Shown piece by piece: positions 44,808 to 62,325 of a stretch of DNA of 64,000 nucleotides. The stretch comes from an uncultured Syntrophomonadaceae bacterium. GTDB lineage: Bacteria; Bacillota; Dethiobacteria; DTU022. The stretch is taken from NCBI GenBank assembly GCA_964585925.1, contig CAZPFS010000003.1, forward strand, positions 17,619-81,618, read 5' to 3'. The first letter of the stretch is position 1; each line of letters starts with the position of its first letter. Made by a program: the position numbers and the translations under genes. The notes under the pieces were generated by a model that worked only from the letters and a program-made list of their open reading frames with translations, did no database searches and was not told the origin of the DNA.

Positions 44808-44920
44808 CTTTTCACCTCGTTTGCCTTGAACAGCTTTTGCTCACAAAATCTTGCCCAAATCCTGAAAGCGCGACCATGATCGTTATTTGTTTGTAAGCAT
44901 AACGGTCTTAAAAAAAATAT

Positions 44921-45715
44921 TCAGGGCAGGAAATGCAACACCGCCTCCAGCACACCTCCTCCCACGGCTCGGGCCTTGTCGGAGATGGACCGGAAGTCAA
45001 CCTCCGCCCCTCGGGGATCTACATCTCCCACCTTCATTCCCTTGCTTGCCGGGAGGCCATTATAGAGCAGACCCCGCACCAGACCGTCGGTTCCCGCCGC
45101 CACGGGAATGCGGCCTACCTCCGCCACCGGCTGGCCCGTTTCAACCAAATCGCCAATTTTGACCAGAGCTTTGAATATCCCATCCGCCGGCGCCCGGAGA
45201 AGCCTTCCCGCCGCCACCCCGGAAACCCCCCCCGGAATACCGGTATTTTCGGCAGCGCTTCCCTGGTAATATACTTTTCCCAGATCGTGCCCGCGCTTGG
45301 TCTCTATTACGGCGTGAACCTCCTGCCCGGCTTCAAATCCCGGCCCCAGTCCGATTACCACCCGGGCATCGCCGATCCTGGTGGTGGTGGCTGTTTTGGC
45401 CATTACCGCATCCACCAGCACCTCCGGCTGAAGTTTCTGCACCAGGCAAGACTCCGGATCGATCAGCACTGCTATCTCCCGGCCATCGATCACCCGGTAA
45501 GCCTCCTCCGCCGTGGCACAAAGCCTGGCCCGAACCCCTTCCACCTCAAAAAGCCCTTCATACACTGCCGAGGAAAAGGCTACTGTGCGCCTCACTGTGA
45601 GGGGCCGGGGAAGTTCCAGCATGATCTGCCGGAAACCGGCCCTGTGCAGGCGGTGTGCCACCCCCGAAGCCAGGTCCCCCGCTCCCCTGATAATTACCGT
45701 CTGTGAAAATTTCAT
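44921..45715 (-). CDS. Rossmann-like SDMH accessory protein (YqeB / EF2563-family-like, TIGR03309-type)
   Basis: 264 aa. N-terminus VIIRGAGDLASGVAHRLHRAGF. It is the first gene of the minus-strand accessory operon, and its family assignment is from memory. The plus-strand ORF 44933..45706 is judged to be the antisense artefact. Confidence 0.5.
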   Translation of the reverse strand: MKFSQTVIIRGAGDLASGVAHRLHRAGFRQIMLELPRPLTVRRTVAFSSAVYEGLFEVEGVRARLCATAEEAYRVIDGREIAVLIDPESCLVQKLQPEVLVDAVMAKTATTTRIGDARVVIGLGPGFEAGQEVHAVIETKRGHDLGKVYYQGSAAENTGIPGGVSGVAAGRLLRAPADGIFKALVKIGDLVETGQPVAEVGRIPVAAGTDGLVRGLLYNGLPASKGMKVGDVDPRGAEVDFRSISDKARAVGGGVLEAVLHFLP

Positions 45716-46192: not shown

Positions 46193-48574
46193 TTATTTTT
46201 GATCCTTGATCGCCTGCAGCACCCTTTCCGGAGTCAGGGGGAAGGTAGTCAACTCGATCCCTATCGCGTCGGCTACTGCGTTGGCAATGGCGGGACCAAC
46301 GGCAATCATAGGTTGCTCACCGATCCCGCGCACCCCAAAGGGACCGTCTTTTTCCGGTGTTTCCAAGGCAAATCCCTTTAGATAAGGGGTGTTCTCAATA
46401 GTTGGTATCTTGTAGTCGGTAAAGTTCGGATTTAAAATTCGGCCTTGGTCCAACTTGATCTCCTCATAAAGGGCGGTCCCCAGACCCATAATAGTCCCCC
46501 CGTGGATCTGAACCAGGCATTGCTGCGGGTTTACCGCCTGCCCCACATCCAGAGCCGTGGCCAACTGCAGGACAGTGATTTCACCAGTTTCCGGGTCTAC
46601 CTCCACCTCGGCTGCAGTAGCTCCAAAGGTCCAGAACATGCCTGGATTCCCCTGCCCGGTTTCGGGATCAAGATTGGTCATCTTGGAAGGAATATATGAT
46701 CCCCGGCCGATGATCGGCCCATGGATCCCCTCGCCGGTAGGCTTTTTATAGCTGTCGGCCAGGATTCTCAAAGGAACCTGTTTCGATCGGTCCTTTTTCC
46801 AGTATACCGTGTCATCTTCCAGTTCCATTTCCCCGGCCGGCACCCCCAGCTCCAGTGAACCCAGTTCCAGTATCTGCCGGCGGGCATCTTCCGCGGCCTT
46901 TATCACCGCATGCCCCAAAGCATAGGTGGTCCGGCTGCCTACGGTCTGCCACTCGTAGGGACTGTAATCGGTATCGGGAATACGGATGGCAAATTTCTCC
47001 ACCGGGATTTTCAATGTTTCAGCGGCAATCTGGCACATGGCGGTCAGCATGCCCTGCCCCATCTCGGTTGCGCTTACCGAAAGATGAACGGTACCGTCCT
47101 CATTAATCCGGATAATCGCCGAGGAGGAAGCATTGCTGGGCTGGGCCGGCGCTTTCACCAGACCGGCCAGACCTTTTCCGCGGAATTTCCCGCTATCCCG
47201 CTTACGCCACTCCACCGCTTCGGCTGCCGTCCGCAGGCAGTTCATAAAAGATGAATCCTCTATTTTCTGTCCGGTAGCGGTAGTGGATCCCTCTTTCATT
47301 CCATTGAGGAGACGCACATCCAGCGGGTCCAGTCCCAGTTTTTTAGCAATTTCATCCATTTGCCGTTCAATGCCCCACTGCATCTCGCACATGCCAAAGC
47401 CCCGCACCGGGCCGCCTACCGGGTTGTTGGTATAAACACAATAAGAATCCGTCTTGATATTTGGAATATCATACGCCCCGGCAGAGCTGTAAGCCGCCGC
47501 TCGGGTAATATTTACACCATATTCGGTGTAAGCCCCCCCGTCCCAGATCATTTTGTACTCCATGGCCGTGATCCGGCCATCTTTGCGCACCCCGGTTTTC
47601 AGGTGGCCATACATCGCCTGGCGGGTAAAAGTGCACTGCATATCTTCTTCCCGGGTGTACACTACGCGCACGATGTATCCGGGGCATTTTCTGGCCAGGG
47701 GTATAACCAGCCCCTCCATGGTGGCCCCGGCTTTGCCGCCGAACCCGCCGCCGATATAACTGGAAACGACTCTAATTTTGTGCAGGGGCATCCCCAGACA
47801 TTTGGCCAACAGTTGCCGCACGGTAAACGGAGACTGGGCGGTGCTCCAGACCGTCAACTTACCGTCAAAGCCCCATAGAGCGGCCGCTTTATGGGTTTCT
47901 ATGGTCACATGCTGCATCTGAGGAACATAGTAATCCCCTTCGATGATCAGATCTGCCTCGGCAAATCCCTCTTCCACATTCCCTTTGCGGATTTTGCTGT
48001 GATTGCTGATGTTTGTTCCCGCTTCAGGGTAAAAAATAGGAACAACCTCGTAGCTCCCCAGATCCTCATGAATCAATGGCGCGCCGGGTTTCATCGCCTC
48101 CAGGGGATTGAATACCGCCGGAAGTTCTTCGTATTCCACCTGGATCAGATCTACAGCCTGTTGGGCTATATCTTCCGTGGTGGCAGCAACCGCGGCCAGC
48201 GGTTCTCCGAAAAAGCGGACCTTATCCACGGCAAAGAAAGTCCGGTCAACCAGATAAAGCCCCACCCGGTTACGGGAACATTCTTTCCCGGTCGCTACTG
48301 CCCTTACGCCCGGCAAAGCCTCCGCCCGGCTGGTATCTATCCGTTTTATCCGGCCGTGGGGGATAGTCGATTTTTTAATTTTGGCATAAAGCATGGGGGC
48401 CATGCTCAGATCCTCAATATATCTGGCACTGCCGGTCACCTTTTCCTCCGCTTCTATCCGGGAATATGTTTTCCCCACATAGGTTAAGGATGGCATATTT
48501 TCTCCTCCTTTCCTCCTTACTTGGAGCAGGCTTTGATCGCCTGCCGGATTTCCTGATAGGCCCCGCAACGGCAC
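46193..48574 (-). CDS. Xanthine dehydrogenase-family molybdopterin-binding large subunit (purine hydroxylase, SDMH context). The probable start is ATG at 48496 ([11 protein letters not shown]..).
   Basis: Aldehyde-oxidase/xanthine-dehydrogenase a/b hammerhead and MoCo-binding domains across ~770 aa. Strong RBS AGGAGGAGAAAAT before 48496. Confidence 0.85.
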
Positions 48575-48987
48575 AGGTTGCCGCTCAGCGCCTCGCTGAT
48601 CTCCTCATCATCCGGATTGGGGTTCCGGTTTAACAGGGCCCGGGCTGAAATAATCACCCCCGGCGTGCAGTAGCCGCATTGAAAGGCGGCGTGATCGATA
48701 AATGCCCGCTGAACCCGATCCAGCTCTCCATTTTTAGCCAGCCCTTCAATGGTTACCAACTCTTTCCCTTCCAGCTCCGCCGCCAGCACCAGGCATGAGT
48801 TTATCGGCACCTCATTCAACAGCACCATACAGGCGCCGCACTCCCCTACCTCGCATCCTTCCTTGGTTCCGGTAAGTTTCAGCTCTTCCCGGATGAAGTT
48901 GAGAAGGGTCTGCTGGGGACAGACCTCCCGGATCTCCTTCATACCGTTAACAGTAAATGAAATGGTCAGCTTTCCGGACATGAGCAC
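48517..48987 (-). CDS. Xanthine dehydrogenase-family [2Fe-2S] small subunit
   Basis: Plant-type ferredoxin Cys motif ([12 protein letters not shown]) and a second 2Fe-2S motif (CGYCTPG...CRCGAY). 156 aa. Confidence 0.9.
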
Positions 48988-49808
48988 ACCTCCCTGGTCT
49001 CTTCCAGTCCGCGGCGCACCAGAACTTCAGCCAGATGGTAGCGGTATTCCCTGGAGCCCCGCAAATCCGTGATGGGAGAAATGTCATTCTTGACCAGTCC
49101 GGCCGCTTGGGACAGATCTGTTATGTTATCCGCATTGATTGCTTTTTCTACCGAAACAGCTCTAACCGGGGTGGGAGCTACCGCTCCCAGGGCGATTCGG
49201 ACCTCCCCGCGCCATCTCTGGACGGCCACCCCTACCGTAGCCAGATCCACCGAACGGGTCCGGGAGATTTTCTTGTAAACCCCTTTTCCCTGGGGGTAGG
49301 GCCGGGGAATAACCACTGCCGTTACCAGTTCTCCTGCCTTGAGGGCACTTTTCCCGGGACCGGTAAAAAATTCTTCGATGGGAACGCTGCGCCTTCCGTC
49401 CGGTCCGGCTATCTTGACCCGCGCCCCCAGGCAGTACAGGGGAGCGGCGGTATCCGCTGCCGGGGAGGCATTGCAGATATTTCCCACCAGGGTAGCCCGG
49501 TTGCGGACAGAATAAGAGCCGATGCTGTGGCAGCCTTCCGCCAGAACCGGCACATTTTTTCTCACCGGATCGAACCGCAGGATCTGATTCAGGGTTACCC
49601 CGGCGCCGATAGTAATTCCGTCCTGATCTTCTTTCAGTATTTTCAGCTCTTCAATGTCCTTGATATCCACCAATTGCCGGGCTTTGAATTTGCCACCCCG
49701 GATTCCCACCAGCAGATCCGTGCCACCGGCCAACAAATAAGTGCCCTCCGTTTCCAGCCACTTCATGGCCTGGGAAAGGTCGGAACACTTTTGATAAGTA
49801 AACGGCAT
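48966..49808 (-). CDS. Xanthine dehydrogenase-family FAD-binding medium subunit (CoxM-like)
   Basis: FAD-binding PCMH-type domain (AGGTDLLV) and a CO-dehydrogenase flavoprotein C-domain. 280 aa. Confidence 0.85.
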   Translation of the reverse strand: MPFTYQKCSDLSQAMKWLETEGTYLLAGGTDLLVGIRGGKFKARQLVDIKDIEELKILKEDQDGITIGAGVTLNQILRFDPVRKNVPVLAEGCHSIGSYSVRNRATLVGNICNASPAADTAAPLYCLGARVKIAGPDGRRSVPIEEFFTGPGKSALKAGELVTAVVIPRPYPQGKGVYKKISRTRSVDLATVGVAVQRWRGEVRIALGAVAPTPVRAVSVEKAINADNITDLSQAAGLVKNDISPITDLRGSREYRYHLAEVLVRRGLEETREVCSCPES

Positions 49809-49890: not shown

Positions 49891-51189
49891 CTATTTGGCC
49901 AGCTCCTTCAGCGCCTCCACAAAGATCTCCATCGGCGGCAGAACAACGCCCGCCCCGATCTGCCCCACACCGGGTTCCTTGTGGGCAATACCGGTATTAA
50001 TTCGGGGCAGAATCCCTTTCTCCACCACTTTTAGGACGTCGATACCGGTGGGGGTGCCTTTAAAATCAAGAGCCGGGATATTGAAATTCTTGTTCTCCGC
50101 AAACGTAATCTCATACATCTCATTGGTAGCTTCATAAGCCATGCTGGGTTTCCCGCCAATGAAATTGACAATCGCCGGCGCTGCGGCCATGGCAAACCCG
50201 CCGATACCCACGGTTTCCGTGATCACGGAATCCCCGATATCGGGATTGGCATCATTTGCGGTAAACCCGGAGAAATAAAGCCCCTTCGGGGTCTGGCAGG
50301 GCGCGGTAAACCACTTGTCACCGGTGCCGCTGACCCGGATTCCAAACTCGGTACCGTTGCGGGACATGGTGCTCACGATGGAACTGCCCTCAATACCATG
50401 GGCGGCTACGGCCATGGTCTTGCAGGAGGCCATGATCGCGTTGAGGGACGTCAGATCGTTGCTATGCATAAAGGCCAGCACTTCCGCCGCGGCGGTAGGT
50501 TTGATCTCTTTGAAAAAGGGGCAGGTATTGGTCAGGTCAAGACGCGGGGTATCATATTCGCGCCGCCGGCCAAACTCAGTCTCGGCGATATAGGGGGCCA
50601 CGGTGCGGATAAACAAAGAAGTGGTGGCCCGGTTGCGGTTGTGTCCATCATCCCCCATATGCAGGGCCTGGGCAATGATCGATTTTATATCAACCCCCCC
50701 GGAGAGCTTGACCGCTTCTTTCAGCACAGTGGCATAAACCTCATCCAGCCAGCGCAGACGCCTGAGTACCCCCTCATCGTAAGCGCCATAACGAAGAACT
50801 TTCCCGTATCCTTCATTCATGTTGGAAAAAGTGTACCCGCCATGCTCTTTATCTTCAATAATAAACACCATCTGAGAAGGGGTGGTTACTCCGGCCATGG
50901 GCCCCACCGCATTGTAATGGTGGCAGGGAGCATACTCGATATCCCCGGAAGCAGCCAGTTCCCGGGCTTCTTCCACATTACGGGCCTTTTTTTCATGGAT
51001 TAAACCCCCAATAATCGCACCTTTCAGTGGCCCGCTCATGTTTTCCCAGGATATGGGGGGGCCGGCGTGAAGAATCAGGTTGTCCTTCATGCCCGGAATG
51101 ACATCTCTGGCCCGTCCAATATCCACCCATACGGGGCGGGAACTCATCATCCTTTCTACAGCTTTGAGATTTGCCTGATCTACACTCAT
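49891..51189 (-). CDS. DUF1116-family protein (YlbE-like; putative oxamate carbamoyltransferase component)
   Basis: 432 aa. Its size and placement next to fdrA and carbamate kinase match the E. coli fdrA-ylbE-ylbF-ybcF neighbourhood. The family assignment is from memory. Confidence 0.5.
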   Translation of the reverse strand: MSVDQANLKAVERMMSSRPVWVDIGRARDVIPGMKDNLILHAGPPISWENMSGPLKGAIIGGLIHEKKARNVEEARELAASGDIEYAPCHHYNAVGPMAGVTTPSQMVFIIEDKEHGGYTFSNMNEGYGKVLRYGAYDEGVLRRLRWLDEVYATVLKEAVKLSGGVDIKSIIAQALHMGDDGHNRNRATTSLFIRTVAPYIAETEFGRRREYDTPRLDLTNTCPFFKEIKPTAAAEVLAFMHSNDLTSLNAIMASCKTMAVAAHGIEGSSIVSTMSRNGTEFGIRVSGTGDKWFTAPCQTPKGLYFSGFTANDANPDIGDSVITETVGIGGFAMAAAPAIVNFIGGKPSMAYEATNEMYEITFAENKNFNIPALDFKGTPTGIDVLKVVEKGILPRINTGIAHKEPGVGQIGAGVVLPPMEIFVEALKELAK

Positions 51190-51281: not shown

Positions 51282-52067
51282 CTACTCCAGAAAGGCCACC
51301 ACCCGGGCAAAAGCCGATTCGCCGCCCTTGAACTTGAAGGGGAAACAACCGATATTGAGCCTTTTGTTTTGCAATTCCGGGGCGCCGATATCGCCGCCCA
51401 GATTTTCCATATGCAGACAGTTGTGTCTAAACAGGGCATTGTGGGTCAACTGGTAATGATCTTCGGGGAAAAGCTTATCCACCGCTTCTTTGCCCCCAAA
51501 CCTTTTTTCCGCTGCTGCCCGTACCCGGTCACACTGTCCGAAAGTTCCCTTGCCCAAAAACCTGCCGATGGGCAGATTCATGGGGTGATCAGTGGATACG
51601 GCGTCTACTCCCCAGATCTTTATCTTTTTGTCCAGCAGCCATTGCACCATATCAGGATGAGCGCCGGGATGATAATGTATATATCTTTCTTCATCGGCTT
51701 CGGGCCCCAAGGCCGCGTATCTGTACCAACCGGTATGCAGCACCAGAAGATCGCCTTCTTTAACTTTCACTCTTTTTTCAATCATTTCGGGAGTATAGGC
51801 AGCCAGGTCATCCATCTCGTCCCTCAAGTCCACGATAACCCCCGTTCCGTACAGCCATTCCAGGGGGATCTCGTCAATGGTCATCCCGTCGGTAATGAAA
51901 TGGCGGGCTGAATCCAGGTGGGTTCCGATATGCAGCGAAGTCTTGATATATTGGGCATTGACTCCGTGTTCCACTTTTCTTTTGAAATACTTGACTTCAA
52001 AGGGAGGATAATAGGGCCAAAAGGTGGTATCCTGATTCAGGGGCTGTGAAAGATCATACAATTTCAT
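51282..52067 (-). CDS. Putative cyclase / kynurenine-formamidase-like metal hydrolase (PF04199 type)
   Basis: HIGTHLDSARH motif (HxGTHxDxPxH). 261 aa. Confidence 0.65.
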   Translation of the reverse strand: MKLYDLSQPLNQDTTFWPYYPPFEVKYFKRKVEHGVNAQYIKTSLHIGTHLDSARHFITDGMTIDEIPLEWLYGTGVIVDLRDEMDDLAAYTPEMIEKRVKVKEGDLLVLHTGWYRYAALGPEADEERYIHYHPGAHPDMVQWLLDKKIKIWGVDAVSTDHPMNLPIGRFLGKGTFGQCDRVRAAAEKRFGGKEAVDKLFPEDHYQLTHNALFRHNCLHMENLGGDIGAPELQNKRLNIGCFPFKFKGGESAFARVVAFLE

Positions 52068-52215: not shown

Positions 52216-52401
52216 TTATTTCAATTTATCCAGAAGCCTGAGCAGGTTTTCATCCCCCATTGCCGGCGGCTTCCATAGAACATGCACCACCGGCGCCCCT
52301 TTCAGCTTCAGGCTTTCGGCAAACCCCTCCAGGCCGAGGTTGATGACCTTGGGCCCGGCGGTAAAAAGCTGTTGAATATTGGTTGGCGATTGGCCAGTCA
52401 T
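52216..52401 (-). CDS. Small hypothetical protein (61 aa) between fdrA and the cyclase gene
   Basis: RBS GGGGGG 6 nt upstream of the ATG. Its start abuts the fdrA stop. Confidence 0.4.
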   Translation of the reverse strand: MTGQSPTNIQQLFTAGPKVINLGLEGFAESLKLKGAPVVHVLWKPPAMGDENLLRLLDKLK

Positions 52402-52415: not shown

Positions 52416-54038
52416 TTAGAATTCAAGTACCGCCCCTGCAAACAGCGCTGCCTCGGCATTGCTGGGCAATACGTGCACCTTGTTTTGAATGAGTTTTTTC
52501 ACCTGTTCCCGGCGGTTCTGGGGATCGTCGTCCGTGCCGCATACGGAGGCCACAAACACCGGAGCGCTTCCCCCGGTTTCCCGGCGGGCCCGGTCGATGG
52601 CCTCCAGGGCTGACCCGGCCGGATCGGGGTGGGCATTATATCCCAACACCAGATCCAACATTATTACTGCCGTCCGGGGATCCTTTGCCTCGGCCACAAT
52701 CCGTTGGTTGCGGACGGTGGGATCTATCATCGGATGAAGCCGCCCCTGAGTAAACTCGTCATCCCCAAAATCAATAATGGTATGTCCCCGGCTGTGGTAG
52801 GCGTCTTCCAGGGCCAGCTCGGGATCCAGGGACACATTGGAATAGATAGCCCCCAATTTTTTTTGCAGTAAAACCATTGTTTCGTAGGCCAGCGTGCCCC
52901 CCGAAAACAATCCCCGGAAAAATTTCCGATCCCCGGTGAGCAGGCTTCTTTCTTTCTCCGCAGCCTGCTTTACCCGGCAGTTCATCTCTTCCGGGCGGTA
53001 GTTCTGCTTTCTCAAGGCTGCCACGGCCCTGGCAGCCGCTTCTTTCAGAGTCTGCGCGGGTTCGCAGCCAGATGAAAGCACCTGCTCCGGGCTGGCGCCG
53101 ATAAAATTCACGATCACCGGTTTCGGGCTGCCGGCAGCCGCCTGAAGCACCTTGGAGGCAACCTGCGGCTCCGGAGGCTTGGAAACAATCACAATTATCC
53201 TGGTGGAGGGGTCCGAAATTAAGGCCTCGAGGCCCATGATCATGGTAATCCCGCCCACCTCGCCTTTCAGATCCCGTCCCCCGGTACCGATCCCATGGGT
53301 AATGCCTTCCCCCAGGTTATGGATCAAGGTGGAAACCTCCTGCAAGCCGGTGCCGGCTGCCGCCACAATTCCTATCCCTCCGGCCCGGACCTCATTGGCA
53401 AAAGCCAGCGGAGTGCCGTTAATAATGGCGGTACCGCAATCGGGTCCCATTACCAGCAATCCTTTCTGCCGTGCTTTCTGTTTGAGGGCTTTTTCATCGG
53501 TCAGCGGAACGTTGTCGCTGAAAATCATCACGTGCAGCCCGGCCTCCAGGATACGCTCCGCCTCCCGACGGACATGTCGGCCGGGAATGGAGAGAAGAGC
53601 CAAATTGGCCTCGGGGAAATGCTTCAGGGCGGTGTCAAAAGTCCTGGGAACAAATTCACCGGCCGCCTGATCATGTTCCACCGGCCTGTTCAGTTCCTCC
53701 AGAGCCTGGTTGACAGCTGCCTCTGCCTGACACGGGGTGGCCGCGTTGACCGCGATGATCAGGTCATTGGCTTCCGCTTCCCGTTCAATTTGTTCGGTGA
53801 GAAGGCCGCTGGTCTGTAGAAATTTCTTGTTATGATCGGTTCCTACAATTATCTCGGCTCCCAGTACTCCCTCCTGCTCCCGGATCAAACTCGAAAGGCG
53901 CATCAGGTAAACCGAATCTCGGAAACAGTTTTTATAAATGTGTGTTTTTATAGACATTGAATCCTTCCCCCTTGATTTGAGGTGGTCTTCACCCTTTAGG
54001 CTACCGGGGCCTAGGCGTTTTTGAGGCTGGTTTTCCAT
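52416..54038 (-). CDS. fdrA: FdrA-family protein (succinyl-CoA-synthetase-like CoA-binding plus ligase-CoA domains)
   Basis: 540 aa with an FdrA-like domain order. It is adjacent to carbamate kinase and DUF1116, as in E. coli. Confidence 0.65.
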   Translation of the reverse strand: MENQPQKRLGPGSLKGEDHLKSRGKDSMSIKTHIYKNCFRDSVYLMRLSSLIREQEGVLGAEIIVGTDHNKKFLQTSGLLTEQIEREAEANDLIIAVNAATPCQAEAAVNQALEELNRPVEHDQAAGEFVPRTFDTALKHFPEANLALLSIPGRHVRREAERILEAGLHVMIFSDNVPLTDEKALKQKARQKGLLVMGPDCGTAIINGTPLAFANEVRAGGIGIVAAAGTGLQEVSTLIHNLGEGITHGIGTGGRDLKGEVGGITMIMGLEALISDPSTRIIVIVSKPPEPQVASKVLQAAAGSPKPVIVNFIGASPEQVLSSGCEPAQTLKEAAARAVAALRKQNYRPEEMNCRVKQAAEKERSLLTGDRKFFRGLFSGGTLAYETMVLLQKKLGAIYSNVSLDPELALEDAYHSRGHTIIDFGDDEFTQGRLHPMIDPTVRNQRIVAEAKDPRTAVIMLDLVLGYNAHPDPAGSALEAIDRARRETGGSAPVFVASVCGTDDDPQNRREQVKKLIQNKVHVLPSNAEAALFAGAVLEF

Positions 54039-54135: not shown

Positions 54136-55074
54136 TCAAGGCTCGATCTGGGTTCCGGCCTTACCTTCTACGGCAGAAACTGCCTGTTCCAGTGAGGTAA
54201 TAACTGCCCTTTTCCCGGATTTACATGCAAACCGGACCGCCGCTTCCGCCTTGGGGCCCATGCTGCCATCGGCAAAGTGTCCCTGCCGAATATATTCTCT
54301 CATCTGGGCCGCGCTCACCGTCCCCAGCTCCTGCTGATCCGGCTTCCGGTAATTGAGAAAAACCTTTGGCACATCAGTCAACATTAAAAACAGCTCTGCG
54401 CCCACGATTTCCGCCAGCTGCTCACCGGCCAGATCTTTGTCGATTACCGCTTCCACACCCTGCACAGTACCTCCCGGCTCCCTGATGACCGGTATGCCCC
54501 CTCCTCCGGAGGCTATCACCAGGCAGGAACTCTCCACCAGCGTTTTGATGGTATTCCCTTCAAATATCTCCAGGGGGAAAGGGGAGGGAACAACCTTTCT
54601 CCAGCCCCGCCCCGAATCTTCCACCCATACCTCGTTTTTCTCCACAGAATTTTTGAGAGCCTCCTCCCTGGAGTAGAACGAACCTATGGGTTTCGTAGGG
54701 TTGGCAAAAGAAGGATCATTTTTGTCCACTACCACCTGGGTGATAAGGGTAACCACCGCTTTGTTTATCCGGTGGCGAATCAGCTCATTTGTTAACTGCT
54801 GCTGCAACATATACCCGATCTGCCCCTGACTCATTGCCCCACAGATGTCAAGGGGCATGGGAGGGGTTTTTTGTCGCGACAGCTCGTTTTGAAAGTGAAT
54901 CTTGCCTACCTGCGGTCCATTGCCGTGAGTAATTACCAGATCATGTTCTCCAATCAGCTTGACCAGTTGCCGGCAGGCGACGGCAATATTTTCGTACTGT
55001 TCTTCGGCAGTCCCCAATTGTCCCGAAGTCAGCAGCGCGTTTCCTCCAAGGGCTACTACGATTCTCATTATCAC
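54136..55074 (-). CDS. Carbamate kinase (ArcC / YqeA-like)
   Basis: MRIVVALGGNALL N-terminus and the amino-acid kinase fold. 312 aa. Confidence 0.85.
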   Translation of the reverse strand: MIMRIVVALGGNALLTSGQLGTAEEQYENIAVACRQLVKLIGEHDLVITHGNGPQVGKIHFQNELSRQKTPPMPLDICGAMSQGQIGYMLQQQLTNELIRHRINKAVVTLITQVVVDKNDPSFANPTKPIGSFYSREEALKNSVEKNEVWVEDSGRGWRKVVPSPFPLEIFEGNTIKTLVESSCLVIASGGGGIPVIREPGGTVQGVEAVIDKDLAGEQLAEIVGAELFLMLTDVPKVFLNYRKPDQQELGTVSAAQMREYIRQGHFADGSMGPKAEAAVRFACKSGKRAVITSLEQAVSAVEGKAGTQIEP

Positions 55075-55320
55075 TTAAACCTCCCAGATCAATTGTGCAG
55101 CTGCAAACCCGCTCCCGCTGCCAATTCCAATCATAACACCCGGGGCTGGAGGTCTGGAATTAATTTTCTATTGTTAATATTATATGCAAGCAGAGGCTCT
55201 TCCTTTAGTTTATATAACCAAATCGCAGGTAATTGTTTGTGTAAACAATACAAATAATATATTGACAAATGGTTTTTTCCCTGCTACTGTTTAGTTGCCC
55301 AATCATATCCGGAGGTGCCT

Positions 55321-57028
55321 GATGAAAAAACAGTACGGTATTACCGTGGAGGAAGCGCTCACTCTGGAAGTTGTAAACCGCCTCAATGTGGTCGGAGGAG
55401 GCCAGGGGCTGGAGCGTGTAATCAAACTGGTAAATGTTATCGAAGCACCCGATATTATGGACTGGGTTTTGGAAGGAGAATTTTTACTTACTACCGGTTA
55501 CTCATTCCGAGAATTCCCGGAGTTGATGACCATGCTGGTGGCCAAAATGGCCCAAGCCAACAGTGCCGGGCTGGCCATCAAGCCCAAGCGGTTTATCAAA
55601 GAAATTCCACCCGATTTGATTGCCAGCGCCGACCGGAACGGTATTCCCCTGCTGGAAGTACCCTACGATCTTTCTTTTTCAGAGATTATCGCCCCCATTT
55701 TGGGGGTCATTGCCAGCAAACAAAACCAGGTCCTGCAAAAGTTGGAACAGGGTAACCGTAAACTGACGGAGATGATGCTTCACGGCAGCACCCTTGGGGA
55801 TCTGTGTTACGAAACTTCCCTGCTCATCCATAACCCGGTAGCCATCATGGATATGGACGGGAAACTATACACCAGCCCGCTGTGTCCGAACAAAGAACAG
55901 TTTGAACTGTTTTTTTCCAAGGACAGCATTGAAGTAAAGAATGACAAGCTGCGTTTCGGCAATATCAAAGAGATCAAGTATTCCATGGAGTCCACTCCCG
56001 GGAAAGACATACCGGGTACCCTGCAGGCGGTTCGGATCCCCATTGTCGCCGACAAATCAGATTATGGGGATATTTACTGCATAATCAACAACCCGATCAG
56101 CGAACCGGATATATTGTTATTGGAAAGGGCCGCCACTATAGCCGCCCTTGAATTTACCAAACGCAAGGCTGTTTTTGAAATAGAAAAAAACTATCATAAT
56201 GAATTTTTGGAAATTTTGCTGTCATACGACTCTGAAAATGAGGATGAAATTATCAGGCGTGCCGGCAGGTTCAATCTCAATCTTCAAAAACCGACCGCGG
56301 TTATAATCATCAATGATCAGTGGGAAAGCAAGGAGCGGGATTTGATCCCGGTTTCCTTGAAAGGCATGAACGAACAGACCGCCAAGGAGCAGCTGTTGAC
56401 CATGATCCACAGCTTCAAGGGACTGCCCGACTGCAACCATTTGTTTGTGGGGATAAAAGGTGCGTATATTATTGTGGTGGTCCAACTGTGCGAGGAAACC
56501 CCTTCCGACAATTTGAAACATGTTGTTTCCAGCCTGTTGAATTTTCTGACCGTGAAAGCCGGTTTAAAAAACAACCATTATATCAAATTCGGAGTTGGCC
56601 GGCCGGGAGAGGGAATCGCCAATATCAAGCGGAGTTACCGGGAAGCCTGGGAGGCCCTCAGAATCGGACTCTTTTCCAACAAATCTTCGGTGATGTATTT
56701 TGACGATCTGGGTTTTTTTAAAATTTTGAGCGAAAAGAGCAGGCATGAGCTGGCAAAATTTGTAGATGAACTGCTTTATCCGGTGCTGGAATATGACCGG
56801 CAAAAAAACGGTGAACTGCTAAAAACACTGCAAACTTATTTTGAAACGAACCGTAATTTCAAGCTTACCTCCCAAAAGATATTTACTCATTACAATACCA
56901 TTTTGTACCGGATAAGAAAGGTTGAAGAGTTGACCGGGATCAGCCTGAATAATCCCGAAGATTCCCTGAATGCAGAAATTGCGGTAAATATTCATAAACT
57001 GCTGCGCTCCGGCAAAAGCGGGCCCTAA
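55321..57028 (+). CDS. PucR/CdaR-family purine catabolism transcriptional regulator. The start is likely ATG at 55321 (MKKQYGITVEE..).
   Basis: N-terminal PucR domain and the C-terminal PucR-type HTH (..TSQKIFTHYNTILYRIRKVEELTGISL). RBS GGAGGTG before 55321. Confidence 0.8.
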
Positions 57029-57133: not shown

Positions 57134-58552
57134 TTAACCGCTCACCGCTTCGGATTTTGCGGCTTCTTCATCGTGAATATAAGCGGTGATCCCGCGTTCG
57201 GCATCGGTGCCCGGAATAATATTATCCAGGATCAAGCCCAGAACTGCCGCTACCGCCATGCTGGTAGAGCAGATAGTGGTGATGATATCCGCCAACCAGG
57301 GCGCCCCTTCAATGACGATATTGGCGTCCGCAATATAGACCGGGACGCTCAAACCCATAAACAGGGAGAACCCGACGATCATTAGGTTGCGCATGGAGCT
57401 CATGTCTGCTTTGGCGGTATTGCTGAGGCCTACCGATGAAATAAGGCCAAACAGCGTGCAGTACAGAGCGCCGACAATGGGCTGGGGAATGGTGGCCACC
57501 AGGCCTCCAAATTTTCCTAAAATGCCCAGAACTACAAACACCACGGCGGCCACGTTAACCACATAGCGGCTGGCCACCTTGGTCAGACCTACCAGCCCGA
57601 TATTTTCGGTATAACTGGTGCTGGCAAAACCACCAAAGATACCGGAGAACAAGCAGCCCACACCCTCAAACCCGATTCCCCGGTTGATCTGTTTTGGAGT
57701 GGGCCTGCCTACTCCCGCCGCGGCGGCAATGGCGTGATAATCGCCGTAGGATTCAATAATCGAACCCAGATAACCGGCTAGAATTATCAGGAAGAAACTA
57801 AAACTAAATTTTGGCAATCCCCAAGGGAAGATAATTTTCCAGCGGACCCAGTCCGCCACCTTTACGGCCGTAAAATCTACAAAGCCGGGGTTTGCCGGAT
57901 CGAAGACACCGGTAACGGAGCAGATCACCGCCACCAGATAACCGATTACCACCGCCAGCAACACCGGGAACAGAGCAAAGAAAGGTTTTTTGGGGCCGAT
58001 AATCAGCGAGAACAAGAAGCACAAAATCATTACCAGTATGGAGATGGGCCAGTTCCCACCGGCCCAGGGCGCACCCACACTGTACAGAGCCAACCCGATC
58101 AAGCAAATAACCGGGCCGATAACCACCGGAGTTACTATTCTTTGAAGCTTACCAATGATTCCTGTAAAACCAACTAAAATTTCTACCAGCGCGCCCAGAA
58201 TAATAGCTCCGTTTATGTACGTCATGGTTATCGGTCCGCCTCCGGCAGCAGCGGTAGCAGCTATAATGCCGAAGAAAGGCCCTAAAAATGCAAACGATAC
58301 CCCTTGGACGATGGGGAGCCTGGTGCCGAAGTTAACCTGAAAGAACGTGGCCACCCCGGAAGCAAGCATTGCACAGGCCACCATCACCGAGGTCTGGTAG
58401 GGATCCATCCCTATTGTGGCTGCCAAGAGCAAGGGCACGGCAACCGTGGCCCCAAACATGGTCAGCATGTGCTGAAACGCCAGACCCAGTGATTTGATAA
58501 ATGGTTTAGGAATATCATCCAGTGTGTATATCATTTTTTCTGCATCCAACAC
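57134..58552 (-). CDS. Nucleobase:cation symporter-2 (NCS2) family xanthine/uric-acid-type permease
   Basis: 472 aa with ~13 TM helices and the NCS2 signature LGLAFQHMLTMFGATVAVP. Confidence 0.85.
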   Translation of the reverse strand: MLDAEKMIYTLDDIPKPFIKSLGLAFQHMLTMFGATVAVPLLLAATIGMDPYQTSVMVACAMLASGVATFFQVNFGTRLPIVQGVSFAFLGPFFGIIAATAAAGGGPITMTYINGAIILGALVEILVGFTGIIGKLQRIVTPVVIGPVICLIGLALYSVGAPWAGGNWPISILVMILCFLFSLIIGPKKPFFALFPVLLAVVIGYLVAVICSVTGVFDPANPGFVDFTAVKVADWVRWKIIFPWGLPKFSFSFFLIILAGYLGSIIESYGDYHAIAAAAGVGRPTPKQINRGIGFEGVGCLFSGIFGGFASTSYTENIGLVGLTKVASRYVVNVAAVVFVVLGILGKFGGLVATIPQPIVGALYCTLFGLISSVGLSNTAKADMSSMRNLMIVGFSLFMGLSVPVYIADANIVIEGAPWLADIITTICSTSMAVAAVLGLILDNIIPGTDAERGITAYIHDEEAAKSEAVSG

Positions 58553-58805
58553 GATATTATCACCCTCCTTACCTAATTATTTTTTCATAATTTTTTTTAC
58601 GCTGTCTTGAACAGTATTCAAATAAAGCCTTTGGTCCTCACCCCTTCCCTGCATGATTTTTGCGACGGGTACACCTATTTAAACAAGTTGCGGAAGTTGG
58701 TATAGCCTAAATATTTAGACAGCGGTCTGAGGCATTATTTCCACAAGCCGCCGGATCAATCCTCTAGCAACGTTTAATAAAACAGATGTTATTCTTTTGT
58801 TTACT

Positions 58806-59714
58806 TTAGCTGAATGTTTTGACAGGTGGCAAAAAATTGTTCAATGTGTACCAGATGGCCGAAGCCAGATCATAACCGGTGCCGGAACCGATATCCAATA
58901 CGCTGTTTATGCTCTTCTGAGCAAGGGTGCCGCCAAACATTCCCGACAGCAGGTTTCTCACCGGTTCCATGGACAAGCCGCGCCGGGCCATCTCCAGCAT
59001 ATGGGCCCCCATGCGCGTGGTGCAGGAGCCCGAGCCGGGTGGGTAGGGAGGGGGCGACCAACGAATATGGGTGGAATGAAAATAATAGCGGCAGGCCAGC
59101 AGGCATCCGTGAATCAAATCATCCCCGGAAGGGGAGGCTCCCTTGCCCAGGCCGCACAAATTACGAAAATATAGGGCAAATTTTTCTTTGTTTACGGTAA
59201 ATGCAGCCTGAACCAGGGGAGGAAAGCTTTCCACCAGCTTGGCTCGAAAATAACTATCGCCGCCCCTAAATCCCAGCAGGACACTACTGTCCGGCGCCTC
59301 TTTGACCAGGGATAGCCGGTGGCGGAGAACGCCAAGTGAGCGGGCGATTGTTTCCCGATTGGCAACCGGAAGAGGGGGGGGATCAAACCGGCAGGCCGGG
59401 CTATCAGCCCAATTAATAACCAGCAGCCTGTTCATTCCCTCCAAGATGATCTTGCCGGACTGAAACCGGCCTGTGGATTGGGGATCGATCTGGCGCCGAA
59501 AGATGTTGAAATCCTCTTTTTGGAGACAGATCGCCGCCGGCCCTTTGTACAGGGCCGGATCGGCAATAGTCAGCAGGTGAGGCCAACCGCGGACATCAAT
59601 ATTCACTGCCCGCCGATGAAGAGACAGCACCTGCAACGGACCCTCTGTACGGCAATCCGCCAGATCGGCGGCATGCCATTCGGCGGCCATATACTTTGTT
59701 TCAATTCTATTCAT
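58806..59714 (-). CDS. Hypothetical protein (302 aa); a possible DUF2877/YlbF-like partner of the adjacent carbamoyltransferase
   Basis: GLGKGASPSGDDLIHG motif. Its position is immediately downstream of the carbamoyltransferase. The family assignment is unverified. Confidence 0.35.
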   Translation of the reverse strand: MNRIETKYMAAEWHAADLADCRTEGPLQVLSLHRRAVNIDVRGWPHLLTIADPALYKGPAAICLQKEDFNIFRRQIDPQSTGRFQSGKIILEGMNRLLVINWADSPACRFDPPPLPVANRETIARSLGVLRHRLSLVKEAPDSSVLLGFRGGDSYFRAKLVESFPPLVQAAFTVNKEKFALYFRNLCGLGKGASPSGDDLIHGCLLACRYYFHSTHIRWSPPPYPPGSGSCTTRMGAHMLEMARRGLSMEPVRNLLSGMFGGTLAQKSINSVLDIGSGTGYDLASAIWYTLNNFLPPVKTFS

Positions 59715-59743
59715 ATCTTGTTCACATTTTCGAATTTTTAGGG

Positions 59744-60808
59744 CTACAGGTTATGATTGAGATAATACTCAAAAATATTGCGATCCCGGCTGAATATCGT
59801 GGCAACCAGGGCCGCCCGGATCCACATCCCGTTGCGGACCTGCCTCCAGTAGGCCGCGCGGGGATCCTCGTCCACCTCGCGGGATATCTCCTGCCTTCTG
59901 GGCAGGGGGTGCATAATGATGGCATCCGGTTTCATCAACTTAACCTGCTTGCCGGTAATGGAATAATGAGCCAGATCCAGTTTTTGGCTGGTTCCATCTA
60001 CTTCATCCCACTCATCCTGAAGCCTGGTCATGTAAATAGCGTCGACCTGGGGAATGATGCCCTCGAAATCCCCGGTCACCTCATAACAGACCCCGGCTTG
60101 ATCAAGGCAGGATTTGAGATCATCGCCTATCTGAAAGCCGTCCGGTGCCACAAAGTACTGCTTGATCCCCTCATATTTGATCAATAGCTGGGACAGGGAA
60201 CGAACGGTCCGCCCGCGCAGCAGATCACCTACAAAGGCAATCTGTTTGTTGTTGATCCCCCCCCGGCTCTGGAAACTGCGCTTCAAGGTATATATATCCA
60301 GCAGGGCCTGGGTGGGGTGCTGATCTTTACCTGAGCCGGCGTTGATTACCGGCACCGGCCGTTCGGTACGGTCCAGCAATTCAGAGATTGTTTCGGCAAA
60401 ATTTGCCTTGTGATGGCGCATGATAATTATATCAAAATAAGAAGAAAATATGCGGACCGTATCCTCTTCCGACTCGCCTTTTATTTCAGAGGAGGTCTTG
60501 GGATCCCGGACCTCGGCGCACCTTATACCCAGGATCTGACAGGCACTGTAAAAGGAGAGAAAGGTCCGGGTGGAGGGTTGTACAAAATAAAGCATAGCCC
60601 GTTTATGATGCAGGGTCGACTCCAGAAATTCCATACCGGCTTTGGTGTTGGCAATTTCCCTGATTTTATCCGCCAGATTGCATATTTCTTCGATGAATTC
60701 CCGGCTAAATTGCTGGGCCTTAATACAGTGATAGATTTTACCTTTCTGTTTCAAGCCATACACTCCTTTGCCATAATATAACCGGCTGATTTTGGAGCTG
60801 ATGTACAA
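59744..60808 (-). CDS. Aspartate/ornithine carbamoyltransferase superfamily protein, YgeW-like catabolic transcarbamylase
   Basis: STRT motif variant (PSTRTF) for carbamoyl-phosphate binding. Its N-terminal region and size (354 aa) are atypical versus ArgF/PyrB. Confidence 0.7.
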   Translation of the reverse strand: MYISSKISRLYYGKGVYGLKQKGKIYHCIKAQQFSREFIEEICNLADKIREIANTKAGMEFLESTLHHKRAMLYFVQPSTRTFLSFYSACQILGIRCAEVRDPKTSSEIKGESEEDTVRIFSSYFDIIIMRHHKANFAETISELLDRTERPVPVINAGSGKDQHPTQALLDIYTLKRSFQSRGGINNKQIAFVGDLLRGRTVRSLSQLLIKYEGIKQYFVAPDGFQIGDDLKSCLDQAGVCYEVTGDFEGIIPQVDAIYMTRLQDEWDEVDGTSQKLDLAHYSITGKQVKLMKPDAIIMHPLPRRQEISREVDEDPRAAYWRQVRNGMWIRAALVATIFSRDRNIFEYYLNHNL

Positions 60809-60843
60809 TGCCCCGGGCAGATGACAACCGCAGGGTCAGGCCA

Positions 60844-62031
60844 TCAGATGATTTTTTCCTGTTGGAGCCGGGAGATCTCCGGCGAGCCATAACCCAAACT
60901 GTTCAGAATCTCCTCGGTATGCTGACCCAGGGCGGGGGGGGGCAAAGTGATCGCTCCCGGAGTGCCGGACAATTTTATAGGAATACCGAGCATCTTTATT
61001 TTCCCGGCAGTGAGATGTTCCCGTTCCACCACCATCTCCCTGGCGCTCACGTGGCTATCGGTCAGCACCTGATCCAAGGTGCGGATCCTACCGCAGGGAA
61101 CGCCGGCCTGTTCCATAATTTCCATCCACTCGGCGGTGGTTTTTTCCACGGTAAACTGTTCGATTATTTTTTTTAGTTCCGCCGGATGCCGGTTGCGGCT
61201 GTTCATGTCCGAAAAGCGAGGATCCTGATTCAATTCCGGGAAACCCAGGGCACGGATAAAGTTTTCCCAGAGGCGCTGATTGCCCACTGCGAATATAACA
61301 TACCCGTCTTTTGTTTCAAAGCTTTCATAGGGGGTGATCATGGGATGGCGGTTGCCTACCCGACCCGGGGCCTCTCCGGTGGCCAGGAAATGGCCGGCTT
61401 GGTAAGTGAGAATGGAGATTATGGAATCCATCAGGGAAATATCCACAAACTGTCCCTTCCCCGTTTTTTGCCGAACCAGCAATGCCAGCAGAATTCCTTC
61501 AAAGGCATTGTGACCTGCCAGTATATCGGCAATGGCTACCCCCACCCTTTGGGGGGGGCCGTCGGGAAATCCGGTAATGCTCATCAGCCCCGCTTCTCCC
61601 TGGATCATAACATCAAAACTGGGTTTTTCTTTGTACGGGCTGTTGTGGCCGTACCCGGTAACGGAGCAGTAAATGATATTTTTATTGATCTGTTTTACCT
61701 CTTCATAGGTCATTCCCATCTGGGCAGTTACCCCTACCCGGAAATTTTCTACAAAAATATCTGCCTCCCGGATCAATTGCATTACTATCTGCCTTGCTTT
61801 TTCCTGGCGCAGATTCAGAGTTATGCTTTTTTTGTTGCGGTTAAATGACAGAAAATAGGCAGATTCTCCGTTGATAAAGGGAGGCCCCAGAGCGCGGGAA
61901 TCGTCGCCCTTGCCCGGGGTTTCCACTTTTACAACCTCCGCCCCCATATCGCCCAACCTCATCGTACAGTAAGGCCCGGCAATAAACCTGCTCAAATCTA
62001 CTACCTTTACTCCAGCCAATGGTTTGTCCAC
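60844..62031 (-). CDS. Family III CoA-transferase (CaiB/BaiF/Frc type)
   Basis: MDKPLAGVKVVDLSRFIAGPYCTMRLGDMGAEVVKVE is the canonical family III N-terminus. 395 aa. Confidence 0.8.
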   Translation of the reverse strand: MDKPLAGVKVVDLSRFIAGPYCTMRLGDMGAEVVKVETPGKGDDSRALGPPFINGESAYFLSFNRNKKSITLNLRQEKARQIVMQLIREADIFVENFRVGVTAQMGMTYEEVKQINKNIIYCSVTGYGHNSPYKEKPSFDVMIQGEAGLMSITGFPDGPPQRVGVAIADILAGHNAFEGILLALLVRQKTGKGQFVDISLMDSIISILTYQAGHFLATGEAPGRVGNRHPMITPYESFETKDGYVIFAVGNQRLWENFIRALGFPELNQDPRFSDMNSRNRHPAELKKIIEQFTVEKTTAEWMEIMEQAGVPCGRIRTLDQVLTDSHVSAREMVVEREHLTAGKIKMLGIPIKLSGTPGAITLPPPALGQHTEEILNSLGYGSPEISRLQQEKII

Positions 62032-62325
62032 TATCTCATCCTCCTATCATTTGCAATTTGTTTCTATGCCTGAATATATATTTCCTGCCTTCAAGGGCGC
62101 TTATGCGTTGATTTTCACAAGCAATTCTACTTATCATACTCCTTGATCTCTTTAAATTCCACCGGATTTTCCATGTTCGGCCCGATTTGCATTTAAACTT
62201 TACCTGTCCAGAAAATATCGGCTGGATCCGGTAAAAACCCTGCGTTATGGCTAAATAATTTTTCTAGAAGGGAATGAAGCTTTGTTTTTCGGGGAAAATT
62301 AGACCTAAAAGGAGGGAATTATTTA

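Follow-up and report, generated by a model that had tools for sequence, protein, structure and literature searches.

The 64,000-nucleotide (nt) stretch of DNA analysed here, referred to as the window, comes from an uncultured Syntrophomonadaceae bacterium, and its interval 58806–62031 is the leading operon of a cluster of about 20 kb for anaerobic nucleobase and ureide catabolism. The operon encodes a family III coenzyme A (CoA)-transferase, a carbamoyltransferase and a protein of 302 amino acids (aa), which is predicted to be AllH, one subunit of an AllFGH-type oxamate carbamoyltransferase whose other subunits, AllF and AllG, are encoded downstream. The explanation that we favour, with moderate confidence, is a cluster for ureide cleavage by AllFGH, in which the CoA-transferase would activate the carbon product and the carbamoyltransferase would be an enzyme of the aspartate carbamoyltransferase type.

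It was not until 2024 that AllFGH was recognized as the oxamate carbamoyltransferase that had long been sought, and this was in Escherichia coli alone (PMC11326118), where oxamate is a dead-end product. The window and about 20 related species-level genomes place the AllFGH set in strict anaerobes and in a different conserved setting, which comprises two transcription units, a selenium-dependent xanthine-dehydrogenase-like hydroxylase, a nucleobase permease and a leading YfdE/SUGCT-like CoA-transferase. These bacteria may take the carbon skeleton past oxamate by way of a CoA thioester, or a different ureide may be the target of their AllFGH-type chemistry. A likely mis-annotation is also corrected here, in that the carbamoyltransferase is not YgeW, and a widespread aspartate carbamoyltransferase subfamily with an unusual invariant signature in the active-site region is flagged. 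The label of the original prediction, which was made from the DNA letters and described a YgeW-like transcarbamylase with a DUF2877-type partner and a CoA-transferase, was largely wrong; the locus nevertheless offers a good lead, open to testing, towards an extension of anaerobic ureide catabolism that has not been described.

Organization of the leading operon

Three co-directional open reading frames (ORFs) on the minus strand occupy 58806–62031 completely, as the original prediction had seen in the ORF list. It had ordered them as carbamoyltransferase, 302-aa protein and CoA-transferase, which is wrong in both directions: transcription runs from the CoA-transferase through the carbamoyltransferase to allH. 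The CoA-transferase gene (60844–62031, minus strand, 395 aa) begins with GTG at 62031, with a GGAGG site 8 nt ahead. For the carbamoyltransferase gene, the longest ORF spans 59744–60808 (354 aa), but the start is most likely TTG 60754, which has an AAAGGAG ribosome-binding site 8 nt ahead and yields a protein of 336 aa (59744–60754, minus strand) that matches all relatives in length. An "atypical N-terminus" previously ascribed to this enzyme is an artefact of the longest-ORF start. The allH gene (58806–59714, minus strand, 302 aa) is the last of the three. Because the successive intergenic gaps measure 89 nt and 29 nt, the genes likely form a single operon, and ribosome-binding sites are present.

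The 294-bp spacer between the operon and a divergent DUF2512 gene (62032–62325) contains no minus-strand ORF of at least 40 aa and is the presumed promoter region. A consensus scan for promoters and terminators returned site counts equal to the shuffled expectation and was discarded, and Rfam searches of 26–64 kb at gathering thresholds revealed no riboswitch and no other RNA family. On the other side of the operon, the spacer of about 250 bp between allH and the permease gene (58553–58805) keeps short blocks, roughly CAAA...TTATT...CTAAAGG...TTGAATT, across the equivalent spacers of 16 loci (L008–L033). These blocks may represent a promoter or an operator of the PucR regulator; the spacer itself gave no Rfam match at E values up to 1. 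A candidate operator derived from the blocks, AAAWTTATTWA, was rejected, as it occurs once in the window and not above chance.

The 302-aa protein as a predicted AllH subunit

The 302-aa protein matches the Pfam family PF11392 (DUF2877) over residues 186–290 with 49.3 bits (E = 9e-13), above the gathering score of 25. The guess that it could be a DUF2877 protein was thus sound, and the protein falls within DUF2877/AllH rather than in an unrelated family. Direct BLASTP against E. coli YlbF/AllH gave 28% identity over 109 aa of the C-terminal Pfam domain (E = 8e-07), and a profile search of 1.8 billion representative proteins recovered 39 representatives of the subfamily below 1e-30 and 1585 DUF2877 proteins below 1e-3. 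A motif that had been read as GxGxSPSGDD is present as GLGKGASPSGDD, with G188, G190, G192, P195, D198 and D199 invariant in 34 relatives. The AlphaFold2 model (predicted local distance difference test, pLDDT, 95.4) consists of an N-terminal beta domain and a helical C-terminal domain, and the invariant G-x-G-x-G-x-x-P-x-G-D-D stretch forms a loop that runs into the start of a helix. The modelled geometry of this loop suggests an anion or phosphate site.

In E. coli, the role of oxamate carbamoyltransferase is filled by AllH together with AllF (FdrA) and AllG (YlbE) (Kim & Kim, 2024; PMC11326118). The enzyme, after which the carbamate kinase AllK acts, converts oxalurate and phosphate to oxamate and carbamoyl phosphate, and it is unrelated to the ornithine carbamoyltransferase (OTCase) fold; the requirement for AllH in the interconversion of oxalurate and oxamate has been demonstrated in E. 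coli only (PMC11326118). Genes for AllF and AllG lie in the window on the same strand as allH, 4.8–8.9 kb away, and this arrangement is kept in relatives. On this combination of family match and gene context, the 302-aa protein is assigned as the AllH subunit of an AllFGH-type oxamate carbamoyltransferase. Since AllF and AllG are encoded in the same window, AllH is not the partner of the carbamoyltransferase, as had been proposed when it was taken for a third subunit of that enzyme; its partners are the two proteins encoded downstream.

In loci L012–L033, AllH is only 28–37% identical to the window protein, and in the same loci AllG is 77–82%, the CoA-transferase 73–78% and the molybdenum (Mo) subunit of the hydroxylase 66–68% identical to their window counterparts. 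Judged by these identities, AllH evolves far faster than its neighbours.

A carbamoyltransferase of the aspartate carbamoyltransferase clade

Profile matches and the predicted fold place the carbamoyltransferase in the aspartate carbamoyltransferase clade, and not with YgeW. Both Pfam domains of the superfamily are detected (OTCace_N, 1.7e-34; OTCace, 2.5e-29). The YgeW models score far below their cut-offs (TIGR03316, 31.9 bits against 500; NF005538, 29.7 against 453), with an alignment that covers only residues 35–192, the N-terminal carbamoyl-phosphate domain. The aspartate carbamoyltransferase equivalog TIGR00670 is passed narrowly, with 253.9 bits for a cut-off of 236.95, and two other aspartate carbamoyltransferase models are missed (NF002032, 242 of 263 bits; NF006046, 212 of 512 bits). 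All 42 sequence matches in the Protein Data Bank (PDB) are aspartate carbamoyltransferases, the best being Arabidopsis PyrB. The AlphaFold2 model (pLDDT 88.6) has unknotted aspartate carbamoyltransferases as its top 50 Foldseek matches in the PDB (template-modelling score, TM, 0.75–0.91), with no YgeW structure among them, although this is a similarity search and not an explicit knot calculation. The earlier description of the enzyme as a knotted, YgeW-like transcarbamylase does not agree with these scores and structural matches.

The residues that bind the substrates are kept, namely S61, T62, R63, T64, K92, R113, H146, Q149, R182, R244 and Q246. Their E. coli equivalents are the S-T-R-T motif, R105, H134 and Q137 for carbamoyl phosphate, and K84, R167, R229 and Q231 for aspartate. 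In a family of 121 sequences (the window protein 59744–60754 and 120 relatives; P0002–P0120; L001–L014, L092), these residues are invariant except for T62, which is T in 117 members and S in 4, and the PSTRTF motif that had been noticed from the outset is likewise present and invariant. The family differs from E. coli at three other positions: without exception, Q59, F65 and W249 replace the E. coli residues E50, R56 and R234. It carries the motifs FxQPSTRTF and TRxQDEW (TRLQDEW in the window) and lacks the canonical STRTR and RxQxER motifs and the E50/R234 pair. In aspartate carbamoyltransferase, E50 and R234 form an interdomain bridge of the closed state, and E50, R56 and R234 are tied to domain closure. 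Scores of the family against the aspartate carbamoyltransferase model are narrow throughout, at 243–254 bits against 237.

At 62–89% identity, the family extends over Bacillota, Verrucomicrobiota, Kiritimatiellae and Chloroflexota. Relatives at 65–75% identity stand alone among housekeeping genes, and one in a Verrucomicrobiota contig neighbours argF, which argues for a role independent of the cluster, most simply that of a biosynthetic PyrB. No locus has pyrI adjacent to the carbamoyltransferase gene, and a look-up of the exact window sequence returned no record. The most likely role of the enzyme is normal aspartate carbamoyltransferase activity, fed by the carbamoyl phosphate that the cluster makes, and not a catabolic one of the YgeW type.

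Two neighbouring candidates were discarded. The ORF of 166 aa that follows stand-alone carbamoyltransferase genes was considered as a cryptic AllH or PyrI, but it is unrelated to AllH and has no NCBIfam or precomputed Pfam match; by eye, it seems hydrophobic. A second OTCase-fold gene lies upstream in L017, L018, L020, L022 and L031. In L022, where it was checked, its product has a strong generic OTCase-fold match and is 24–27% identical to the window enzyme, and a divergent dinB gene intervenes, which places it outside the operon.

A YfdE/SUGCT-like CoA-transferase as companion of the AllFGH system

The CoA-transferase is a full-length family III protein: PF02515 matches with 462 bits (1.8e-138), residues 5–372 corresponding to profile positions 1–366 of 366. 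The CaiB/Frc-type assignment made earlier therefore holds, and the nearest characterized relatives use dicarboxylates, including oxalate. The best NCBIfam matches are succinate-glutarate CoA-transferase (376 bits), YfdE (319), mesaconate CoA-transferase (309) and Frc (296), and no named-family cut-off is reached (376 of 750 for the first; YfdE NF008511, 318.9 of 522; Frc TIGR03253, 292.8 of 504). The Frc models cover the protein in two stretches, the best being residues 1–207, and the Frc/YfdW chains in the PDB match only residues 1–210. Its nearest solved relatives are human SUGCT (9br7, 333 bits) and YfdE (4hl6, 285 bits).

Among 119 orthologues, the catalytic Asp169 never varies, and the loop G226-N227-R228-H229 is likewise fixed at G226, N227 and H229, with R at position 228 in 118 of the 119. 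A GNxH loop substitutes for Frc's glycine-rich loop in acetyl-CoA:oxalate CoA-transferases (Mullins et al, 2013; PMC3720670). The protein thus has the YfdE-type loop and not the glycine-rich oxalate loop of Frc, although the motif may be shared by a clade wider than YfdE. A link to carnitine or bile acid metabolism, which would have spoken against an oxalate-type role, finds no support: the CaiB model NF002914 scores 158 bits against a cut-off of 413, no BaiF-specific model matches, and none of at least 20 related loci contains cai or bai genes, the neighbours being allH, allF, allG and xdh. The orthologue group is tight, with more than 110 clusters at 69–89% identity and nearly all members 395 aa long, followed by a drop to 62%. 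By its matches and motifs, the protein is classified as a YfdE/SUGCT-like family III enzyme, and it is a conserved, so far undescribed companion of the AllFGH system.

AllF, AllG and the wider catabolic cluster

The genes of the AllFGH set are split: allH lies in the leading operon, and allF, a 61-aa tail, allG, carbamate kinase and a cyclase gene lie downstream on the same strand. AllF (FdrA) is encoded by an ORF of 540 aa (52416–54038, minus strand), which passes NF004760 (481 bits, cut-off 433), is 39% identical to E. coli FdrA residues 2–493 and carries CoA-binding and CoA-ligase domains according to Pfam. Between allF and the cyclase gene lies an ORF of 61 aa (52216–52401, minus strand) that has its counterpart in the final 43 residues of E. 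coli FdrA (49% identity to residues 513–555, E = 1e-11), and the same gene is called in L008 (11933–12118) and L010 (12125–12310). Because this conserved ORF corresponds to the end of FdrA, the C-terminal tail of AllF is a separate small protein in this lineage. AllG (DUF1116/YlbE; 49891–51189, minus strand) matches PF06545 (2e-90) and shares 44% identity with E. coli YlbE along its whole length. The product of the cyclase gene between allF and allG (51282–52067, minus strand; PF04199, 2.9e-37) is a cyclase-family metal-dependent amidohydrolase, which scores only 61 bits against an arylformamidase model with a cut-off of 223. This slot holds the cyclase (PF04199) in the window clade and a CN_hydrolase (PF00795; 17302–18189) in L014, and it is empty in the derived clade described below, which looks like non-orthologous replacement of an amidase function. 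The carbamate kinase (54136–55074, minus strand) passes TIGR00746 (411.6 bits, cut-off 358) and is 40% identical to E. coli AllK/YbcF.

Between allH and the carbamate kinase gene lie an NCS2 nucleobase permease of the xanthine/uracil permease family (57134–58552, minus strand; PF00860, 7.7e-84; TIGR03173 pbuX, 261 bits, below cut-off) and a PucR-family regulator of purine catabolism with PucR, GGDEF_2 and HTH_30 domains (55295–57028, plus strand). The regulator gene is divergent from the carbamate kinase/allF unit, and its position is kept in related loci. Downstream of allG, Pfam domains identify a xanthine-dehydrogenase-family molybdenum hydroxylase of three subunits (46193–49808, minus strand), with a flavin adenine dinucleotide (FAD) subunit (48966–49808), a [2Fe-2S] subunit (48517–48987) and a Mo subunit (46193–48574), all on the minus strand. 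Its best NCBIfam matches remain below cut-off (XdhA, 565 bits for 780; XdhB, 225 for 310). The genes that follow at 41209–45715, all on the minus strand, are predicted to serve cofactor maturation of the selenium-dependent Mo type: YqeB (44921–45715; TIGR03309, 340 bits, cut-off 220), a MoCF_biosynth-domain protein (43773–44807; Pfam), XdhC (42952–43776; Pfam) and a YqeC-MocA fusion (41209–42597; TIGR03172 YqeC, 123 bits, cut-off 73). A pyrF gene is found alone elsewhere in the window.

A second catabolic unit, probably separate, adjoins the cluster at 27050–41212. It contains a sigma-54 activator (39404–41212), a serine-dehydratase-alpha-like protein, a 300-aa protein without a family match, an M28 peptidase, a branched-chain-type ABC transporter and an M20 amidohydrolase, as well as an SsnA/chlorohydrolase-like amidohydrolase (28528–30165) that stays below all cut-offs. 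GC content falls to 43–47% across 28–40 kb.

Conservation in related genomes

A scan of one genome per species with an alignment of the AllH subfamily yielded 80 loci, which were annotated by tblastn with the window proteins. In metagenome-assembled genomes of Syntrophomonadaceae/Dethiobacteria-like Bacillota, the recurrent order is CoA-transferase, allH, NCS2 permease, reversed PucR, allF, allG and xdh. The CoA-transferase gene lies directly upstream of allH, or with only the carbamoyltransferase gene between them, in 19 of the 21 loci with enough upstream sequence. Spacing between the two varies: in L022 the longest ORFs overlap by 29 nt, several loci have gaps of about 10–15 nt, and the largest distance is about 250 nt. 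The permease comes after allH in at least 15 related loci, the xdh genes follow allG in related loci, and a divergent dinB or DUF2512 gene lies upstream of the CoA-transferase in relatives.

The carbamoyltransferase gene is present in the window clade (L008–L013), in L014 and in the Dethiobacter loci L092 and L093; in the rooted CoA-transferase tree, the window clade is represented by the window, L008 and L010, and the L013 sequence ends before the carbamoyltransferase position. In 16 related loci, allH follows the CoA-transferase without any carbamoyltransferase. The window clade and L014 also carry carbamate kinase, the presence of which correlates with that of the carbamoyltransferase; L092 has the carbamoyltransferase and no carbamate kinase match. 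In a neighbour-joining tree of the CoA-transferase (rooted on outgroups of 59–62% identity, no support values), the loci with a carbamoyltransferase form successive basal branches and those without it form one derived clade. For this reason, the carbamoyltransferase gene is probably ancestral in the operon and was lost once. A recent lineage-specific insertion was rejected, as the rooted tree makes ancestral presence and one loss more parsimonious. The carbamoyltransferase tree, also neighbour-joining without support values, shows embedded and stand-alone copies interleaved.

In Dethiobacter sp. GCA_018333405.1 (L092, 7674–11019; L093, 267–3612), the CoA-transferase and carbamoyltransferase genes are intact and are followed directly by a MoCF_biosynth gene 62% identical to that at 43773–44807 of the window, as if the entire stretch from allH through yqeB had been lost.

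Outside this group, allF, allG and allH occur with carbamate kinase and without a CoA-transferase in Trichococcus and Alphaproteobacteria. A module of allF/allG, cyclase and xdh-like genes with allH is found in L034, L041, L050, L068, L074 and L081, from Anaerolineae/Chloroflexota, Burkholderiales and unclassified bacteria; no CoA-transferase match and no allantoin genes were identified in these loci. AllFGH-type enzymes may thus commonly serve Mo-hydroxylase pathways beyond the allantoin route of E. coli. Candidatus Entotheonella has a unit of allH, allG and a family III CoA-transferase (L047, 8277–11774; L090, 237–3382). In L047, the CoA-transferase gene lies immediately downstream of allG, its product is 40% identical to that of the window, and no allF is present on the 14.8-kb contig. 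In Fervidifonticultor, a CoA-transferase gene lies near allH and a cyclase gene. The CoA-transferases of both taxa are 40–48% identical to that of the window, and their adjacency to allH, allG or cyclase genes is independent.

Proposed pathway and alternative explanations

From the observed gene identities, their homology to the E. coli enzymes and the conserved linkage, we infer the following route. After import through the NCS2 permease, a purine-type base would undergo hydroxylation by the selenium-dependent Mo enzyme, and opening of its ring would give an N-acylurea, for example oxalurate. AllFGH would use phosphate to split the N-acylurea into carbamoyl phosphate and oxamate, and carbamate kinase would convert the carbamoyl phosphate to ATP, CO2 and NH3. 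The amide product would be deamidated, by the cyclase here and by the CN-hydrolase in a relative, and the YfdE/SUGCT-like CoA-transferase would load the resulting (di)carboxylate, most simply oxalate, onto CoA, with acetyl-CoA or succinyl-CoA as the donor. The carbamoyltransferase would probably consume carbamoyl phosphate together with aspartate. In the literature searched on oxamyl-CoA, on oxaluryl-CoA, on catabolic aspartate carbamoyltransferase and on DUF1116/FdrA with xanthine dehydrogenase, no description of this arrangement was found, nor was any of the combination of AllFGH with a CoA-transferase.

Several points weigh against this route. Neither oxalyl-CoA decarboxylase nor another thiamine pyrophosphate enzyme was found within the 64-kb window, and the allantoinase, allantoate amidohydrolase and ureidoglycolate dehydrogenase of the E. 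coli oxalurate route were not identified. In the majority of related loci, the CoA-transferase is present but the position between allF and allG lacks an amidase, so that conversion of oxamate to oxalate is not encoded locally. The CoA-transferase stays below every curated family cut-off, and the narrow pass of TIGR00670 together with the Q/F/W replacements makes ordinary aspartate carbamoyltransferase behaviour less than certain. The substrates given for the window proteins are predictions. Finally, the basal position of the loci with carbamoyltransferase and carbamate kinase, and the Dethiobacter pair without allH, hint at a closer tie between carbamoyltransferase and CoA-transferase than would be expected of a parked housekeeping gene.

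One alternative is a catabolic role for the carbamoyltransferase, which would phosphorolyse N-carbamoyl-L-aspartate or a close ureido-dicarboxylate and feed carbamate kinase, while the CoA-transferase would activate the released dicarboxylate. We consider this unlikely, although the distribution of the gene is in its favour: the window clade and L014, with both carbamoyltransferase and carbamate kinase, are basal, as is L092 (no kinase match), both genes are absent from the one derived clade, and the CoA-transferase/carbamoyltransferase pair is retained without allH in L092 and L093. Catabolic transcarbamylases are usually recognized by a carbamate kinase gene close by (PMC6022934). The invariant Q59, F65 and W249 fall at positions tied to domain closure, and the conserved residues that bind two carboxylates are consistent with a dicarboxylate as product and with a CoA-transferase of the dicarboxylate type. 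Against this, members of the family with the same signature occur by themselves in housekeeping contexts, in Verrucomicrobiota next to argF with no carbamate kinase nearby, and the embedded copies do not form a separate or faster-evolving clade. Moreover, the cluster was not found to encode dihydroorotase or dihydroorotate dehydrogenase, and the searched literature contains no description of an aspartate carbamoyltransferase with a catabolic role.

The converse reading, which we find doubtful to the same degree, takes the carbamoyltransferase for a biosynthetic pyrB that is merely located in the operon, so that only allH and the CoA-transferase would be catabolic. It is consistent with the stand-alone orthologues of 65–75% identity in unrelated contexts, with the many related operons (the majority) that have no carbamoyltransferase gene, and with the solitary pyrF, by which pyr genes appear scattered. 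It does not account well for the position of the gene, between CoA-transferase and allH or right after the CoA-transferase, which is kept in three basal branches at about 72% identity, nor for the correlation of its presence with the carbamate kinase gene.

A further possibility, which we rate as rather improbable, is that the CoA-transferase takes part in the AllFGH-type chemistry itself. The substrate would then be a CoA thioester, for instance oxaluryl-CoA in a cycle with oxamyl-CoA, or the cluster would act on a different ureide, such as ureidomalonate (from uracil or barbiturate) or the 4-ureido-5-imidazolecarboxylate of the classical clostridial xanthine pathway. The CoA-transferase and allH genes are tightly coupled: their longest ORFs overlap by 29 nt in L022, and the genes are about 10–15 nt apart in several loci and at most about 250 nt apart in others. 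This coupling points in this direction, as do the Entotheonella operon of allH, allG and CoA-transferase on a 14.8-kb contig without allF and the CoA-binding and CoA-ligase domains that AllF retains. The Km of E. coli AllFGH for free oxamate is very high, at 36.9 mM (PMC11326118), the module of allF/allG, cyclase and xdh occurs in Chloroflexota and Burkholderiales without allantoin genes, and the genes for the clostridial xanthine steps were unidentified as of 2012 (PMC3519856). However, E. coli AllFGH acts on free oxamate and on carbamoyl phosphate with no need for CoA (PMC11326118), a CoA-transferase is absent from most allFGH loci, the closest relatives of this CoA-transferase use free dicarboxylates, and oxamyl-CoA and oxaluryl-CoA are unmentioned in the searched literature.

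A broader proposal, to which we give similarly little weight, unites AllFGH, the CoA-transferase and, ancestrally, the carbamoyltransferase with Q59, F65 and W249 in one undescribed, ATP-yielding purine or pyrimidine pathway of Dethiobacteria/Syntrophomonadaceae-like anaerobes. The CoA-transferase would act in ureide cleavage or in the next step, the carbamoyltransferase would be a catabolic second source of carbamoyl phosphate, and possible substrates are CoA-bound oxalurate or oxamate, ureidomalonate and 4-ureido-5-imidazolecarboxylate. If true, it would assign genes to orphan steps of anaerobic nucleobase fermentation.

The scheme of the original prediction, in which a YgeW-like knotted carbamoyltransferase and its DUF2877 subunit make oxamate that is split to oxalate for the CoA-transferase, is hardly credible: the three genes are indeed adjacent and probably co-transcribed and the 302-aa protein really is DUF2877, but the YgeW scores (31.9 and 29.7 bits against 500 and 453), the fold and all PDB relatives of the carbamoyltransferase identify an aspartate carbamoyltransferase, E. 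coli AllH partners AllF and AllG without an OTCase fold (PMC11326118) and both are encoded in the window, and 16 related loci have the CoA-transferase followed by allH with no carbamoyltransferase.

Comparison with known systems

YgeW was assigned to phosphorolysis of the ureido group in the 2,8-dioxopurine pathway of uric acid by two papers of 2025 (PMC12507026; bioRxiv 10.1101/2025.04.24.650524), and the earlier remark that its substrate is unsettled is therefore outdated. The carbamoyltransferase shares with YgeW the OTCase-fold superfamily and a setting in an anaerobic, purine-related cluster with carbamate kinase, YqeB and YqeC. It differs in score (about 30 bits against cut-offs of 453–500) and in length (336 aa, compared with about 396 for YgeW), and the pathway markers YgfK, HyuA and YgeX were not found next to it, the SsnA-like protein (28528–30165) being below cut-off. 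The cluster is not the 2,8-dioxopurine/YgeW pathway.

The CoA-transferase resembles YfdE, SUGCT and Frc in its full-length family III fold and Asp169, and YfdE in its GNxH loop. It lies below all named-family cut-offs and has GNxH at the place of the glycine-rich loop of Frc. Its genomic partner is allH and not oxc, and oxalyl-CoA decarboxylase was not found nearby.

PyrB (TIGR00670) has the same fold as the carbamoyltransferase (TM 0.75–0.91; 32–38% identity), the Arabidopsis structures 6yw9 and 6ypo being closest, followed by the E. coli enzyme. The STRT, HPTQ and HPLPR motifs and the equivalents of R105, R167, R229, Q231 and K84 are kept. In contrast to PyrB, the family has Q, F and W for E. 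coli E50, R56 and R234, and the gene has no adjacent pyrI and lies inside a catabolic operon near carbamate kinase.

The closest known system is allFGHK of E. coli (Kim & Kim, 2024; PMC11326118), in which the genes are contiguous. In the window, they are not: allH is in a separate upstream operon, a cyclase gene lies between allF and allG, the C-terminal tail of FdrA is a separate 61-aa ORF, and AllH is very divergent. The neighbours also differ, being allE, allC and allD in E. coli and a CoA-transferase, an aspartate-carbamoyltransferase-type gene, an NCS2 permease, PucR and a selenium-dependent xanthine-dehydrogenase-like enzyme here. Nevertheless, the Pfam and NCBIfam families are the same in both systems, and all four E. 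coli proteins have homologues in the window, with identities of 39% for AllF, 44% for AllG, 28% over the Pfam domain for AllH and 40% for AllK.

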